64,000 nucleotides of DNA from Nitrospinota bacterium (GCA_022562795.1 JADFOP010000001.1:20691-84690), one strand, 5' to 3'. Shown: positions 42,565 to 50,840, counted from the first letter of the stretch. Numbers and translations are program-made. The notes: generated by a model from the letters alone, not told the origin.

Positions 42565-43821
42565 ATGAATCGTTGGATGATCATGTTTACCGGAACTGCG
42601 ATTAATATCATGCTGGGAGTACTTTACTCCTGGAGCATTTTCGTGGTTCCACTTTCCAAGAAGTTTGGATGGACGCGGGCCCAGCTGAGCTGGCCGTTCA
42701 CCATGTCAATCTTCACCTTCGCTCTAGTGATGGTGGCGGCCGGGAAGTGGCAGGATAAAGTCGGACCCCGGATCGTCTGCGTGACGGGCGGTATCATCAT
42801 GGGGATCGGCTTCATCCTGACGAGCTTCGTCACGTCGTTTCCCGCCCTCGTGGTGACCTTCGGGGTCATCGGCGGGGCCGGGGTGGCCTGTAGCTACGTG
42901 ACGCCCGTGGTTACATCCATGAAATGGTTCCCAGACAAGAAGGGGTTGGCCGCCGGCATCACAGTCTTTGGATTCGGATTCGGCGCCTTCGTCTTCACGC
43001 CAATCGCGGTGGTCCTCATCAAGAATGTGGGCATCATGAACTCCTTCTTGTACCTGGGCTTCATCTGGATAATCGGCGTCGGCGGTTTGGGCATGCTCCT
43101 GCGAGTCCCTCCCCCGGGCTATAAGCCTGAGGGCTGGGATCCTCCGGCCCCGGCGGTCGGAGTCACGGACGCGGTTGCGGTGGACTGGGAGACTAGGGAT
43201 ATGATTAAGACCCCGACCTTCTGGTTGCTGTGGCTTGCCTTCCTCGGCAACGCCAGCGTGGGCATCATGGTGATTTCGATGATCGCGCCCTACGCCAAGA
43301 CGTTGGGAATCAGCGCGGAGACGGCGGCCTTCTTCATCGGCTACCTCTCCATCACCAACGGCTTCGGACGCATCATCGCCGGGTGGCTCTCCGACGCCAT
43401 CGGGCGGACCAGGGCCATGGTGCTCATCTTCTCCATCACGACGGTGAACGTATTCCTGCTGCCGATTATGGCGAAGACAGCCGCCGGATATGCAGTCGGC
43501 CTGATGATCTGCGGCGCTTCCTACGGGGCGAACTTCGCCCTCTTCCCCGCGGCCACGGGGGCGTTCTTTGGCTCGAAGAACCTCGGGGGTAACTACGCCG
43601 CCGTCTTCACCGCATGGGGTGTCGGAGGCGTCATTGGACCGCAGTCCAAGGCCGCGATGTTGCGGAAGTACTCCGCCGGCCTCTCAGGCGAGGAGCTTGT
43701 GAGCGCGAGGCTCCAGGCTTACAAGATTGCCTTCTACATTGGGACGGCCATGGGAATTCTGGCCGTGGTCACGGCGGTCCTCTGCAAGCCTCCAGGGGCG
43801 CCACCGGAGCCGGCTAAGTAA
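42565..43821 (+). CDS. MFS transporter, oxalate/formate antiporter (OFA) family
   Basis: 12-TM topology; OFA-like N-terminus MNRWMIMFTGTAINIMLGVLYSWSIF; AAGGAG RBS. Confidence 0.8.
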   Translation: MNRWMIMFTGTAINIMLGVLYSWSIFVVPLSKKFGWTRAQLSWPFTMSIFTFALVMVAAGKWQDKVGPRIVCVTGGIIMGIGFILTSFVTSFPALVVTFGVIGGAGVACSYVTPVVTSMKWFPDKKGLAAGITVFGFGFGAFVFTPIAVVLIKNVGIMNSFLYLGFIWIIGVGGLGMLLRVPPPGYKPEGWDPPAPAVGVTDAVAVDWETRDMIKTPTFWLLWLAFLGNASVGIMVISMIAPYAKTLGISAETAAFFIGYLSITNGFGRIIAGWLSDAIGRTRAMVLIFSITTVNVFLLPIMAKTAAGYAVGLMICGASYGANFALFPAATGAFFGSKNLGGNYAAVFTAWGVGGVIGPQSKAAMLRKYSAGLSGEELVSARLQAYKIAFYIGTAMGILAVVTAVLCKPPGAPPEPAK

Positions 43822-43858
43822 GCCAGACGCCACAACGGTGGTTTGTTCAGCAGTACCA

Positions 43859-43898
43859 CGAGGAGGGGTTTCCGGTGGGGACCCCTCCTCGTCTTTTA
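43859..43898 (+). terminator. rho-independent terminator after the MFS gene
   Basis: CGAGGAGGGG...CCCCTCCTCG 10-bp stem followed by TCTTTTAT. Confidence 0.55.
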
Positions 43899-43954: not shown

Positions 43955-43983
43955 TTGAAGCTCTCGCCGTGACTTTGTATATT
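43955..43983 (+). promoter_or_regulatory. sigma70-like promoter of the E2-JAB-E1-Ubl operon (TTGAAG-17-TATATT)
   Basis: -35 at 43955-43960, 17-nt spacer, -10 at 43978-43983, ~35 nt upstream of ATG 44017. Confidence 0.4.
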
Positions 43984-44016: not shown

Positions 44017-45156
44017 ATGAAGTCTTCCAGCCCACTTCTTAAGCGAGGTGAGCGCCATCCCCCACCGGAGGTGGCGGATGTGATGGGAGAATACGCCGAC
44101 GCCCTCGGAATGGAGGCCGGCTTCGACGATCCACCGAAGGGGTGGCGCATCTCCCCGCGCGACGGCCGCCTCTGGTGTCTCAACGATGCGGCTCCAATCC
44201 CTCCCACCATCTTTGGCCGCCTACCCGTTTTGCCTCGCGTGCAGCGGGGCGTTATTTTCGGCCATTCTTTGGCCAAGGACGCCTGCACCGCCATTGGCGA
44301 GACCCGCCGCCCAGGCAGGGGGATGCTCATCCGGGATGACGACCGCCTGGCGGTGGCCGAAGTTAAGCGGACGGCCTGTTACCTCTCCTTCGATCTGCTC
44401 TCGTGGCCTGGCCCCATAGCAGCCATCGTGTTACGCAAGGTGCTCGACGCCGCATTGGCCGCCTGCGGAGATAAGCTTGTGGCCAGCAGTCCCCTATCGA
44501 CCGATGCCCGGCAGCTAGCGATTAAGGAGCTTGCCCATCGAACCATGTCGGCCGACGCCGACTGGGCCCGACTGCAGGAGAGGGAGGCCCGTCAAGCCCT
44601 CATGGAGGCCGGCACAAACCACGCTTCCAGCCGCCGTATCCATCTAGAGGAAGAGATCTCCTCTCTGGAAGACAACCTGGCCGAGTTCTCCCGACGCATC
44701 ACGGTTGACAGCCGCCGTCTGTTCAAGTACCAGCGGGAGTTGGTGTCCCTCGAAGGCGAAGAGGGGGGCGATCCGGTTGATTTCGCCGAAGAATACGACC
44801 GGATTCGGGCCCATCCCCTCGTCGAGGAGCTTACAGCCCAAGACGACCGGCTCACGGTCACCACCCTTCCCCTGACCGCAACATTTGAGGACGAGCTCAT
44901 CAACCTCGGACGGTTTGAAATCAAAATGCACCTCAACGGAGACCTCAGGATCACCAACCTCACACGGCGGATGTGGACCTACGATCACCCTCACATTCGC
45001 GAAGGGGTCCCGTGCCTCGGGAACATCCAGGAGGGTGTGGCGAAGCTCATCGGCACCTATCAGCTTGCCGTCGTAATTCAGGTTCTCATCGACTTTCTAC
45101 AGCTCGTCAACCCCAAGGAGTGGATCGTCTCTGCCCAGTACTGGCGGGATCCCTAA
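44017..45156 (+). CDS. E2 (UBC)-like ubiquitin-conjugating enzyme homolog with large N-terminal extension
   Basis: C-terminal YDHPHIREGVPCLGNI matches the UBC HPN...Cys active-site signature; alternative start ATG 44083 after GGAGGTGG. Confidence 0.55.
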   Translation: MKSSSPLLKRGERHPPPEVADVMGEYADALGMEAGFDDPPKGWRISPRDGRLWCLNDAAPIPPTIFGRLPVLPRVQRGVIFGHSLAKDACTAIGETRRPGRGMLIRDDDRLAVAEVKRTACYLSFDLLSWPGPIAAIVLRKVLDAALAACGDKLVASSPLSTDARQLAIKELAHRTMSADADWARLQEREARQALMEAGTNHASSRRIHLEEEISSLEDNLAEFSRRITVDSRRLFKYQRELVSLEGEEGGDPVDFAEEYDRIRAHPLVEELTAQDDRLTVTTLPLTATFEDELINLGRFEIKMHLNGDLRITNLTRRMWTYDHPHIREGVPCLGNIQEGVAKLIGTYQLAVVIQVLIDFLQLVNPKEWIVSAQYWRDP

Positions 45157-45170
45157 GGGGGGCCTCTCAC

Positions 45171-45830
45171 ATGATTGAGCGTGTTCGCGTAAGCCCCGAT
45201 GCCTGGAGCCGGATGCGGCTCTACGTCGAGTGCTGTGACACCGAAATTGGGGGCCTTGGGCTTGGGACCTTGGAAGGTTCAATATTCCACCTCGAAGAGG
45301 TGGTCCTCATCGAGCAGGATGTCACGGAAATGGATACCCTCCTTTCGCCCGACGGGCTTGCCCGCTTCCTCCACGAGCTCGTGGAGGGAGGCGGGAGCCC
45401 GGCTCGGGTCAAAGTCTGGTGGCACAGCCACGTCAACCACGCGCTTAAGTGGAGCAGGCAGGACGAGGAGACCATCCGCCAGCTCAATCACGACTATCTA
45501 CTCTCCCTGATAGGCAATAAGAGCGGCCAATGGCTATGCCGACTCGACCTCGTCGGGCCTCCAGCCCGAACCGTCGAGCCGGTGCCTCTGGGGCCGACCG
45601 AGGTGGCCGGAGCGGTCGATCCGGCCTTGCGGGCCTCCATCGAGCGGGAGGTCGCCGAAAAAGTAAAGTCGTGGGAGCTAGTGCGCATTCCGGGTCAGGG
45701 AGGGTTTTTTTTCGGCACCGAGATCGTGACGAGCGACTATTCCTACGCCCTTGAAAGCTACGGCTCCTTTCTTCTTCCGTGGGAGGGAAGCCACGGCGAC
45801 CCCGCCTCCGGGCCCGAAACGGAGGAATAG
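45171..45830 (+). CDS. JAB/MPN (JAMM) metallopeptidase, deubiquitinase-like
   Basis: Exact JAMM motif WWHSHVNHALKWSRQD (HxHx7Sx2D) with upstream Glu (CCDTEIGGLG). Confidence 0.7.
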   Translation: MIERVRVSPDAWSRMRLYVECCDTEIGGLGLGTLEGSIFHLEEVVLIEQDVTEMDTLLSPDGLARFLHELVEGGGSPARVKVWWHSHVNHALKWSRQDEETIRQLNHDYLLSLIGNKSGQWLCRLDLVGPPARTVEPVPLGPTEVAGAVDPALRASIEREVAEKVKSWELVRIPGQGGFFFGTEIVTSDYSYALESYGSFLLPWEGSHGDPASGPETEE

Positions 45831-45839
45831 GCGGCGGCA

Positions 45840-46487
45840 ATGGATTACTTCCGGCAGATGGACCTCGTTGATCAGGAGGCCCTCGACATCCCGATGGTGG
45901 TTATCGGGTGCGGGGGGATTGGATCGCTGACCACGCTTGCGCTCGCCAAGATGGGCTGTCACAATCTGACGGTCTACGACGACGACATCATTGAGCCTCA
46001 CAACCTCCCAAACCAGGTCTACCGGATGGAGGACACGGGGAAGAAGAAGGTGGATGCCATCGGAGACATCCTGCACTCGTACACCGGAGCACGGATAACC
46101 GTCCGGCCCGAGCGAATAGCCGGCCAAAAGCTTCGGGGCGTCGTCATAAGTGGTGTGGACACCATGGCCGACCGGGTCCGGATCTGGCTCGATTCGGTCA
46201 AGTTAAATCCGGCCGTGCCCCTTTACATCGACGCCCGGATGGGGGGCGAGGTGACCCGGATATATTCCGTTCGCCCCGTCGACCCGTTCCATATCCAGTC
46301 GTACGAGGCGACGCTCTACAGCGACACCGAGGCCGATCCGCTGACCTGCACCGGACGGACAATTATCTACAACACCTTCGCGATTGCTGGTATCATAACC
46401 AGCCAGGTGAAGAAATTTCTCATGGGGGAGCCGTATCACCGGGAGATTCTCTTTGATCTCCACACTTTGACGCTCAACCACAATTGA
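45840..46487 (+). CDS. E1-like ThiF/MoeB-family adenylyltransferase (Ubl-activating)
   Basis: VVIGCGGIGS Rossmann motif, DDDIIEPHNLPNQ, RMGGE, catalytic Cys candidate in LTCTGRT. Confidence 0.75.
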   Translation: MDYFRQMDLVDQEALDIPMVVIGCGGIGSLTTLALAKMGCHNLTVYDDDIIEPHNLPNQVYRMEDTGKKKVDAIGDILHSYTGARITVRPERIAGQKLRGVVISGVDTMADRVRIWLDSVKLNPAVPLYIDARMGGEVTRIYSVRPVDPFHIQSYEATLYSDTEADPLTCTGRTIIYNTFAIAGIITSQVKKFLMGEPYHREILFDLHTLTLNHN

Positions 46488-46515: not shown

Positions 46516-46746
46516 ATGAAGCGGTTGACTGTCGACGAGACTAACATCGAGGTTCGGATGGTCTCGATGGGCCGGGGCGTCCAGAAGTTCGTCCGGGAGA
46601 AGGGTATCAACGTTGGTGATTTCCTCGACCAGATGGGTGTCGACCAAACCATGGACTTCCGTGTCAACGGCGCCCTGTCGGAACGGTCCCGGCCGCTGGA
46701 GCACGGCGACCAGGTGCTCATCGTCCCGAAAATCAAGGGCGGTTGA
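46516..46746 (+). CDS. ubiquitin-like beta-grasp protein ending in Gly-Gly (ThiS/MoaD/Ub-like)
   Basis: 76 aa, C-terminus ...LIVPKIKGG*; beta-grasp-like hydrophobic pattern; AAAGGGGG RBS; last gene of the operon. Confidence 0.65.
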   Translation: MKRLTVDETNIEVRMVSMGRGVQKFVREKGINVGDFLDQMGVDQTMDFRVNGALSERSRPLEHGDQVLIVPKIKGG

Positions 46747-46847: not shown

Positions 46848-47273
46848 TCAACCCCCAAGCACCTTGATCACGACCCGCTTGCGTCGCCGTCCGTCGAATT
46901 CGGCGTAGTAGACCTGCTGCCACGGGCCCAGGTCGAGGTGGCCGTCGGTCACAGGTACCAGGACTTGATGATGGACCAGGATGCTCTTTAGGTGCGCGTC
47001 GCCGTTGTCTTCACCGGTTCGGTGGTGGGCGTAGTCCCGGCCGAAAGGGGCGAGTGACTCGAGCATTTCATCGAGGTCTTGGATGAAGCCGGACTCGGCA
47101 TCGTTCACGTAGACGGCCGCAGTAATGTGCATTGCGCTCACAAACACGAGCCCCTCCTGGATGCCACTCGCGGCCACAGCAGCCTCGACCTGATCGGTTA
47201 TATTTACGTAATCCCGCCTTTTGTCGATCTCAAACCAGAGATATTCCGTATGGGCGCGCATAGCTCCCTCCAC
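46848..47273 (-). CDS. YjbQ/UPF0047 family protein
   Basis: [22 protein letters not shown] and [15 protein letters not shown] motifs. Confidence 0.75.
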
Positions 47274-49577: not shown

Positions 49578-50840
49578 GTGTTAAACCGCGAGGAATATGA
49601 ACGGCTAGAAGCCGACCGACTGGCGCCCTATGCGATGAAAAGCGCCGCCTCCCGGGGGCGCCGCTATGAAGAAGCGGAGCACCCCGTGCGCAGCGTCTAC
49701 CAGCGCGACCGGGATCGAATCATACATAGCGCGGCCTTCCGCCGCCTGGAGTACAAGACCCAGGTTTTCGTCAACCACGAGGGTGATTACTACCGGACCC
49801 GTCTTACCCACACCCTGGAGGTCGCCCAAATCACCCGCACCATAGCCCGCATCTTGAGGCTCAACGAAGACCTGGCCGAGACAATCGCCATCGCTCACGA
49901 CCTCGGCCACACCCCCTTCGGGCACTCGGGCGAGGTGGTCATGAACGAGCTCATGGCCGACCACGGCGGGTTCGAGCACAACCGCCAAAGCCTGCGCGTC
50001 ATCGAGGAATTGGAGACGCGATACCCTGACTTTCCGGGGCTCAACCTAACCTACGAGGTCCGAGAGGGTATCGCTAAGCACAGCTCTGAGTACGACGACA
50101 GCCAGCCTGGAGGATACGACCCCGACTGCCTCGCTACGCTGGAGGCGCGGATCGTCGACCTGGCCGATGAGATAGCCTACAACAACCACGACATCGACGA
50201 CGGGCTGACTTCACGTATGCTTGAGCCGGAGCCGCTCGAGGCCGTCACCCTCTGGAGGGAGCATTTCGCGCGCATCCGCCAGCGTTACCCTGGACATCCG
50301 TTCGGCCTCTGGAAGCACCAGACGGTCCGCCATATCATTAACGAGCAGGTGACCGACCTGGTAGAGACCCTTCACCAGCGCCTGGCCGACGAACAGATCG
50401 GCTCCGTGGAGCAGGCCCGCGACCCCCGCCATGCCGACCTCGTCTCCTTCAGCCCGGAGATGTCCAAGAAGAACCGAGAGCTGAAGGACTTCCTCATGGC
50501 CCATCTCTACCAGCACTCCCGGGTGATCCGGATGGAGGCCAAGGCCCGAAGAATTCTCACCGACCTCTTTACCGCATACACCGAAAACCCCCGCCAATTG
50601 CCTCCCCCGTCCTACGCCGTCATTGAAGATGCCTGGGAAGAAAACCAGCGTGTGTCGGCCGAGCACGCCGCCCAAGGCCTTACCGGAGAGGTTCTCGCAA
50701 GGGCGTTACAAGCCGTCCAGACTTACTGGGCTAACGAGGGAAGAATAAAGCGGGCCATCTGCGACTACATCGCCGGCATGACGGACCGCTTCGCCTTGGA
50801 CGAGCACAAAAAGCTCTTCGACCCTCACGAGCGGGTTTAA
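49578..50840 (+). CDS. dgt: dGTPase-family HD-domain triphosphohydrolase (Dgt-like)
   Basis: RDRDRIIHSAAFRRLEYKTQVF, HTLEVAQI, HDLGHTPFGH motifs. Confidence 0.85.
   Translation: MLNREEYERLEADRLAPYAMKSAASRGRRYEEAEHPVRSVYQRDRDRIIHSAAFRRLEYKTQVFVNHEGDYYRTRLTHTLEVAQITRTIARILRLNEDLAETIAIAHDLGHTPFGHSGEVVMNELMADHGGFEHNRQSLRVIEELETRYPDFPGLNLTYEVREGIAKHSSEYDDSQPGGYDPDCLATLEARIVDLADEIAYNNHDIDDGLTSRMLEPEPLEAVTLWREHFARIRQRYPGHPFGLWKHQTVRHIINEQVTDLVETLHQRLADEQIGSVEQARDPRHADLVSFSPEMSKKNRELKDFLMAHLYQHSRVIRMEAKARRILTDLFTAYTENPRQLPPPSYAVIEDAWEENQRVSAEHAAQGLTGEVLARALQAVQTYWANEGRIKRAICDYIAGMTDRFALDEHKKLFDPHERV

Follow-up and report, generated by a model that had tools for sequence, protein, structure and literature searches.

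Gene X and the operon it heads

We analysed a 64,000-nucleotide (nt) stretch of DNA from a Nitrospinota bacterium (GCA_022562795.1 JADFOP010000001.1:20691-84690), hereafter the window, with a focus on gene X (44017-45156, + strand, stop codon included), whose 379-amino-acid (aa) product carries an N-terminal extension in front of a domain resembling ubiquitin-conjugating (E2) enzymes. This extension had been flagged by an earlier inspection of the nucleotide sequence (the sequence-only reading), and the flagged region, 44017-44800, corresponds to residues 1-261 of the X open reading frame (ORF). In the ORF list, X is the first of four tightly packed + strand genes, X, JAB, E1 and Ubl, the latter three encoding a metallopeptidase, an enzyme of the ubiquitin-activating (E1) type and a ubiquitin-like protein (Ubl), with intergenic gaps of 14 (X-JAB), 9 (JAB-E1) and 28 nt (E1-Ubl).

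Several observations show that the flagged region is translated and favour 44017 as the point where translation begins. Compared with L007, a syntenic Nitrospinae orthologue locus whose X is 77% identical to that of the window, nucleotide differences by codon position number 3/2/11 across residues 1-22 and 14/4/30 across residues 23-97, a third-position bias which indicates that X is coding from residue 1 on. The initiating Met of four orthologues (62-77% identity to X) occupies the same alignment column, and at position 23, the site of an alternative start (44083) that the sequence-only reading had singled out for checking, these four proteins carry Val in place of Met. Furthermore, a consensus scan placed a sigma-70-like promoter candidate for the four-gene operon (TTGAAG-17-TATATT, 43955-43983, + strand) 34 nt 5′ of ATG 44017, and L007 keeps both promoter hexamers and their distance to the ATG. 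Because of the third-position bias, the conserved Met column and the conserved promoter, 44017 is the favoured start of X and 44083 is not favoured; initiation at 44083 would remove just residues 17-22 of the first helix (17-30). A terminator-like hairpin (16 bp, GC-rich, then a T-run; 43858-43892) ends the upstream transporter gene, and hairpin and promoter candidate together mark X as the first gene of its own transcription unit.

The contrary view, that the region is an annotation artefact with the real start far downstream and a chance ORF in GC-rich DNA before it, draws on the base composition (62% G+C), on long overlapping ORFs in other frames, on a GGAGG box 11 nt 5′ of ATG 44083 and on one relative (P0006) called from near 44083. 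We regard this as scarcely credible and consider it refuted by the codon-position bias from residue 1, by protein conservation down to 27% identity, by a confident fold prediction (see below) and by the conserved ATG column and promoter.

Domain architecture of X

Residues 253-379 (44773-45153, + strand) form a predicted minimal UBC/E2-like domain, so that the sequence-only reading, which had assigned a UBC-like signature to the last ~110 residues, was about right. In the AlphaFold2 (AF2) model, this domain comprises helix 256-264, a beta-meander (269-314), the sequence DHPH (323-326), Cys333 and helix 350-361, and thus displays the UBC/E2 topology of N-terminal helix, antiparallel beta-meander, active-site loop and crossover helix. 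The active-site motif, DHPHIREGVPC (44983-45015, + strand), was recognized by translation and conservation and contains the candidate catalytic Cys333 (45013-45015); it represents an HPN-type motif ~7-10 residues before a conserved Cys, with His, not Asn, as its third residue. Among homologues, DHPH is invariant, Cys333 is conserved at 95-100%, and P332, L334 and G335 show little or no variation. A profile built from 21 diverse C-terminal domains found UbcH7/UBE2L3 as its best real PDB match (E=1.2, UbcH7 residues 5-88), in an in-register alignment that pairs HPH with HPN and Cys333 with the catalytic Cys86. X resembles UbcH7 in its helix alpha1, its beta-meander, an H-P-x sequence that precedes the catalytic Cys by 7 residues, and a later helix; it differs in having HPH for HPN, in lacking C-terminal helices (a minimal fold) and in carrying a helical hairpin and an N-terminal domain in front. 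The next PDB match of the profile was the RWD domain of Mad1 (E 1.3), and proteins that join a coiled coil to an RWD/UEV domain (Knl1, Mad1, Csm1, Vps23) offer an analogy only, since they have no catalytic Cys and X keeps it. Although no single statistic carries the assignment, the combined evidence leaves the E2-like nature of the C-terminal domain well supported. A metal site made up of D323, H324, H326 and C333 was considered and dropped as less likely, the motif being in register with the HPN...Cys of UbcH7.

Upstream of this domain, the single ~260-aa region proposed by the sequence-only reading resolves, by alignment and structure prediction, into two units: a subfamily-specific alpha/beta module (residues ~14-190) and a family-wide hairpin of ~45 aa that goes with the E2 core (~205-250). 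The hairpin is assigned to the core because many listed family matches begin their best-scoring alignment at query residues ~185-213, because short family members (~190-260 aa) consist of the helical part and the E2-like domain, because indels among homologues cluster around residues 186-204, and because one homologue is split near this boundary. In that homologue (L129:780-1964), one in-frame TAG near residue 178 divides X into ORFs of 200 and 182 aa, the latter, which holds hairpin and E2-like domain, restarting 36 nt later in the same frame with JAB next; the break is either a genuine split between the modules or an artefact of assembly or sequencing.

The N-terminal unit opens with a tail (residues 1-13, 44017-44055, + strand) that is modelled with low confidence (predicted local distance difference test, pLDDT, 28 for residues 1-10) and is poorly conserved in the alignment (mean top-residue frequency 0.20), with purifying selection against L007. 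The orphan alpha/beta domain proper (residues 14-155, 44056-44481, + strand) is predicted to contain helix 17-30, seven short strands (34-123) and helix 132-154, and its conserved positions are Y26, L30, P60, L85, G102, D107, Y122, F125, R140, L143, D144 and L147. The N-terminal region can be aligned in homologues down to 27% identity. Structure prediction, one of the checks that the sequence-only reading had proposed, gave a confident fold for isolated residues 13-160 modelled from 22 sequences (pLDDT 86, predicted template modelling score, pTM, 0.84), compared with a pLDDT of 74 and a pTM of 0.73 for the full-length AF2 model of X. Next come residues 156-204 (44482-44628, + strand), which comprise the first half of a 62-residue helix (162-223) and then a length-variable stretch in the AF2 model and the alignment, and which belong with the subfamily-specific module. 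An Ala/Leu/Arg-rich segment that had suggested a helical part to the earlier reader (residues 163-199, 44503-44613) indeed falls within predicted helix 162-223. The hairpin itself (residues 205-250, 44629-44766, + strand) is built from the end of helix 162-223 and helix 228-246 and precedes the UBC-like domain; a full-length profile gave weak, non-significant PDB matches of this stretch to helical and coiled-coil proteins (best E 0.011).

The absence of any recognised motif in the N-terminal ~260 aa, likewise claimed from sequence, held throughout the searches. Searched with whole X at E<=1, Pfam, NCBIfam and PADLOC each gave 0 matches; 61 diverse family members produced coiled-coil noise and nothing else in Pfam; 22 N-terminal domains had no consistent Pfam match at E<=10; the region gave noise only against PHROGs; and the N-terminal profile had 0 matches among PDB sequences at E<=10. 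By these profile comparisons (Pfam, NCBIfam, PADLOC, PHROG and PDB sequences), the extension is without a recognisable relative. A hidden Markov model of the N-terminal domain matched no ORF other than X in 128 loci (described below), and a word-indexed search with the N-terminal profile, limited to 8000 candidates, yielded 2 fragments.

Hydrophobic residues, Gly and Pro account for most of the conserved positions of the alpha/beta domain, and Y26, D107, R140 and D144 are its only well-conserved polar residues; the domain is therefore probably non-catalytic. A divergent enzyme or effector, with a class I glutamine-amidotransferase-like or a minimal zincin-like fold, is accordingly hard to accommodate: the weak GATase1-like resemblance comes without the Cys-His-Glu triad, there is no HExxH motif, and the Pfam and PDB profile searches, even at E<=10, offered no match. 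We hold this explanation to be highly improbable. The effector half of the accessory role that the sequence-only reading had envisaged is unsupported, in view of the lack of conserved catalytic-type residues. One N-terminal strand of most family members bears an H-x-H sequence (e.g. HVH or HIH, then FA-x-P), which the clade of the window replaces by W-C-L at residues 53-55 (44173-44181); the replacement may reflect a lost ligand or metal site, or simple structural variation.

Family, operon types and genomic setting

An exhaustive search returned 1206 cluster representatives (50% identity) at E<=1e-3, 19 of them at E<=1e-30, and word-indexed searches returned 11 close homologues of X and, with a diverse family alignment, at least 31 matches. 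The ~40 family members that come with an annotation are called 'hypothetical protein' or are unnamed, with no Pfam domain and no informative name. To these we added 120 loci from a motif scan of metagenome contigs, pooled with 8 earlier loci to give 128. These loci contain 127 X homologues, and although many of the contigs are short, JAB adjoins X in 81 loci, E1 in 71 and Ubl in 51; JAB, E1 and/or Ubl are present on the same strand in 26/26 dereplicated loci with at least 2.2 kb 3′ of X. Identified hosts of related loci are a Nitrospinae bacterium and Candidatus Sulfotelmatobacter.

The E2 module is the constant part of this family, and the N-terminus varies. Among the top 148 of the 1206 representatives, all 148 have the E2 module; 43 have the full N-terminal domain, 27 its second half alone, 30 only a short helical lead, and 48 carry other long N-termini that fall into at least 21 sequence clusters. 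When the N-terminal profile was compared with 8 alternative N-termini by hhalign, one matched weakly (L104, P=0.0012), and the others appear unrelated to the domain of the window. Two long members with unrelated N-termini (L059:1850-3616, - strand; L104:1647-2891, + strand) extend past the E2-like domain in Cys-rich acidic tails, which may be metal-binding or zinc-finger-like.

This diversity bears on whether the N-terminal module serves chiefly for oligomerisation or autoregulation, in which case the coiled-coil stalk and the capping domain would dimerise X or block its active site and play no part in target choice. Long helices modelled at high pLDDT (132-154, 162-223 and 228-246) and the weak coiled-coil matches of the full-length profile are what such a device might be expected to show, and the full-length pTM of 0.73 points to a compact structure, with the N-terminal domain perhaps packed against the core. 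The short forms, however, have the hairpin alone, so that the ~175-aa alpha/beta module would not be needed for oligomerisation, and at least 21 unrelated replacement N-termini look more like diversification of specificity; we thus consider this account unlikely.

Three operon types were distinguished among proteins that carry the N-terminal domain. Type A (X-JAB-E1-Ubl) is found in the window and in L001, L007, L081, L084, L105 and L121; type B consists of X-E1-Ubl, without JAB. Type C (L006:1465-7575, L003:7001-13173, L018, L023 and L126, among others), which holds a distant branch of the N-terminal domain (~28% identity), combines X-JAB with an alpha/beta-hydrolase, a 263-268-aa protein with no Pfam or NCBIfam match, a 94-aa Ubl-like protein ending GEKG, and a pair formed by a ChlI/BchI-like AAA ATPase and a ChlD-like VWA protein. 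A ThiF-type E1 that could charge the E2-like Cys was not detectable in type C loci. The N-terminal domain is therefore kept whether or not an operon includes JAB, and likewise for E1, which argues against a role dedicated to docking either enzyme; short forms without the domain still adjoin JAB, E1 and Ubl.

Among the products of the partner genes in the window, the JAB/JAMM metallopeptidase (219 aa, 45171-45830, + strand, 14 nt past the X stop) has weak matches (Prok-JAB, E 0.017; PADLOC JAB, 0.0042) and a confirmed start codon, and is further identified by its motif, E...HxH-x7-S-x2-D (HSH here), which is invariant in 44 non-redundant relatives; its residues E26, H86, H88, S96 and D99 are counted from one residue before the Met, so 1 is to be subtracted for the 219-aa protein. 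The E1-like adenylyltransferase (215 aa, 45840-46487, + strand) is of ThiF type (PF00899 at 5e-18) with one ThiF domain at residues 17-197, and conserves GxGxxG, D47, D49, R112 and D131, together with Cys170 in 22/23 relatives; all its NCBIfam equivalog scores lie under cut-off, the best at 60 bits against a 159-bit cut-off. The Ubl (76 aa, 46516-46746, + strand) is ThiS/MoaD-like (PF02597 at 2.9e-5; NCBIfam equivalog score 21 against a cut-off of 80) and ends ...IKGG at the stop codon. Of its relatives, 90% retain the C-terminal Gly, and some have 1-2 residues past GG.

Around the operon, the window encodes an MFS transporter, YjbQ, a zinc-ribbon protein, an FG-GAP protein, an HD dGTPase, GGACT and LarA-N, and these neighbours are syntenic in relatives whose X is 64-77% identical. 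Family-wide, the commonest neighbour Pfam families (149 proteins from 80 dereplicated loci; 25 of 74 families listed) are UPF0047/YjbQ, NTPase_1, DUF2203 and PpiC rotamase, with alpha/beta-hydrolase, MFS and SAM hydroxide adenosyltransferase also common; PADLOC returned a handful of generic AAA or radical-SAM type matches among the same 149 proteins. An exception is L002, where X lies among integrases, a PemK toxin and a PLD protein. The genomic setting thus looks housekeeping, and defence is not indicated. The defence-associated framing of the sequence-only reading consequently gives way before housekeeping-type neighbours, lineage-stable synteny and a near-empty PADLOC result.

Three neighbours merit separate mention. 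Directly 5′ of X lies an oxalate/formate-antiporter-like MFS gene, in the window (42565-43821, + strand) as in L007 (L007:4534-5787); an MFS gene is also found 5′ of X, but divergent, in type C loci (L003, L004, L018, L021, L023, L065 and L126), and its presence next to X in both lineages could reflect old synteny or a functional link. YjbQ/UPF0047, the most frequent neighbour family (5/149 sampled), lies convergent just past Ubl in types A and B (window 46848-47273, - strand; likewise L001, L007, L011, L022, L040, L109, L113 and L120). An HD-domain dGTPase-like gene (49578-50840, + strand) is found 2.8 kb downstream, and its L001 orthologue gives a PADLOC dGTPase match (7e-103), the lone defence-type match near the cassette; the dGTPase family includes housekeeping and known defence genes alike.

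In a rival reading, the cassette would instead be a sulfur-carrier (ThiS/MoaD-type thiocarboxylate) system, with X and its conserved Cys relaying sulfur or acting as a scaffold and the N-terminal module binding a biosynthetic partner or substrate. The best family matches fit this idea (Ubl to ThiS and MoaD, E1 to ThiF and MoeB), as do the minimal single-domain E1 of ThiF size and the metabolic or housekeeping neighbours, including YjbQ/UPF0047 just 3′ in several lineages. Moreover, ThiS+E1+JAB sulfur-transfer operons are known (rows 4a-4e of the 2006 census; Iyer et al. 2006, PMC1779556). Yet the ThiF, MoeB and ThiS equivalog scores are far under their cut-offs (e.g. the 60 against 159 bits above), the E1 lacks a rhodanese domain and conserves Cys170, ThiG, MoaE and cysteine synthase were not seen among the neighbour families listed, and neither the window nor syntenic L001 shows a SirA gene. 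The UBC-type fold of X and its HPH...Cys in register with a true E2 are likewise features outside known sulfur-carrier systems, and we judge a sulfur-carrier role improbable.

Known systems and a proposed mechanism

The archaeal SAMP/UbaA/JAMM and Thermus TtuB/TtuC systems are Ubl-E1-JAMM systems that work without an E2. The X operon shares with ThiS/MoaD+E1+JAB systems a Gly-Gly Ubl, a minimal ThiF/MoeB-type E1, a JAMM peptidase and a chromosomal non-defence setting; it differs from sulfur-transfer operons in its UBC-like Cys protein as first gene, an E1 without rhodanese and the lack of biosynthetic partner genes among the neighbours listed. Its arrangement is that of census rows 4a-e with an E2 added, and census rows 6a-e differ (PMC1779556).

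BilABCD (type I/II Bil) is similar in uniting a Ubl, an E2 with a catalytic Cys, JAB and E1 in one operon with no separate ubiquitin ligase (E3), and its E2 is thought to choose targets itself (Chambers et al., PMC10557695; Ye et al., PMC11601596). The comparison with BilB advised by the sequence-only reading holds for the catalytic Cys and fails for its surroundings, HPH preceding Cys333 in X, as in canonical E2s, and a His lying downstream of the Cys in BilB (PMC1779556; PMC10557695). The E1 of the window is a 215-aa single adenylation domain, in contrast to the multidomain IAD-AAD-CYS protein BilD (PMC10557695; PMC11601596). Additional differences are the ~250-aa N-terminal extension on the E2, the gene order E2-JAB-E1-Ubl, a ThiS-like Ubl ending GG, and housekeeping neighbours with no defence-island, CapH/CapP or CapW association; there was no Bil-type NCBIfam or PADLOC match. 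Bub (6E/DUF6527) and type II CBASS (Cap2/Cap3) are alike in possessing bacterial E1/E2/JAB-type machinery, and the adenylation part of the window E1 partially matches Cap2-type E1-E2 models of CBASS. In the X operon, however, E2 and E1 are separate genes and there is no CD-NTase, which sets it apart from CBASS. Bub uses oxyester chemistry, its E1 and E2 being devoid of the catalytic Cys, and includes a DUF6527 serine protease (PMC11601596), whereas C333 of X and C170 of E1 are conserved and the operon has neither DUF6527 nor a fifth gene. A search of the open-access literature brought up the 2006 census along with papers on CBASS, Bil and Bub, and no description of the X architecture. The suggestion of a new architecture (N-terminal domain, stalk and UBC-like domain) is thereby borne out as far as Pfam, NCBIfam, PADLOC and searchable papers extend.

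Overall, we propose that X is the E2-type enzyme of a compact four-gene Ubl conjugation operon and that its N-terminal module is a non-catalytic accessory, an explanation to which, as a whole, we give about even chances. We infer each biochemical step of its mechanism from genes, motifs and associations. The small ThiF-type E1 would adenylate Ubl at its ready-made C-terminal Gly-Gly and load it on Cys170, and Ubl would then pass from E1 to Cys333 of X; the association of the genes (26/26 loci) is what leads us to infer that X receives a Ubl~Cys333 thioester from E1. As there is no separate E3 in the operon, X may use its own N-terminal module for selection: carried on the helical stalk, the module would select partners or targets or control the activity of X, making X a combined E2/E3-like adaptor. 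The JAB peptidase would reverse conjugation and, in relatives with residues after GG, mature Ubl.

UBE2O and BIRC6 are large E2/E3 hybrid enzymes; they have no sequence relationship to X and provide an analogy, not membership. The constant catalytic core with its swappable N-terminus, the lack of an E3 and the retention of the N-terminal domain with or without JAB or E1 suggest that the module is a specificity, partner-binding or regulatory piece, not a docking site for the operon's own enzymes. The target-specifying half of the accessory role imagined from sequence fits this constant core and interchangeable N-terminus.

A number of points weigh against the proposed conjugation role. By sequence, the link of X to E2 enzymes is not statistically significant (the E=1.2 above); no Pfam E2 model (UQ_con, Prok-E2_A to E) matched in 61 family members at E<=0.01, Foldseek gave nothing at E<=1e-3, and the active-site loop (319-340) has low confidence in the AF2 model. 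The Ubl and E1 are nearest to the sulfur-carrier proteins ThiS and ThiF. Loci were located via the E2 motif, so that an N-terminal domain without an E2 could escape detection. Finally, dimerisation, autoinhibition or Ubl binding by the N-terminal domain fits the data equally well.

Beyond the single operon, we offer as a doubtful but possible extension that X founds a widespread, hitherto undescribed bacterial class of 'self-targeting' E2, with a canonical-type (HPx...Cys) minimal UBC core, a helical stalk and interchangeable N-terminal recognition modules, in which the domain of the window would be a new fold and the operon (E1, E2/E3 hybrid, JAB and GG-ended Ubl) a chromosomal housekeeping pathway of protein modification in Nitrospinota-like bacteria, as opposed to phage defence.

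To our knowledge, CBASS, Bil and Bub, each of them framed as phage defence, are the only systems for which bacterial Ubl conjugation has been shown to date. The X family is distinct in its classical His-Pro-x...Cys E2 site, its ThiF-sized E1, its Ubl without need of processing and its housekeeping-looking setting, and because of these traits the X operon could stand midway between sulfur-carrier systems and true ubiquitination, in a simple and tractable form. As the family runs to over 1200 clusters (50% identity) and its annotated members have neither a Pfam domain nor an informative name, defining the N-terminal domain would improve the annotation of many metagenomic proteins. In a system that lacks an E3, the N-terminal module furthermore offers an evident handle on how targets are chosen and on what those targets are.

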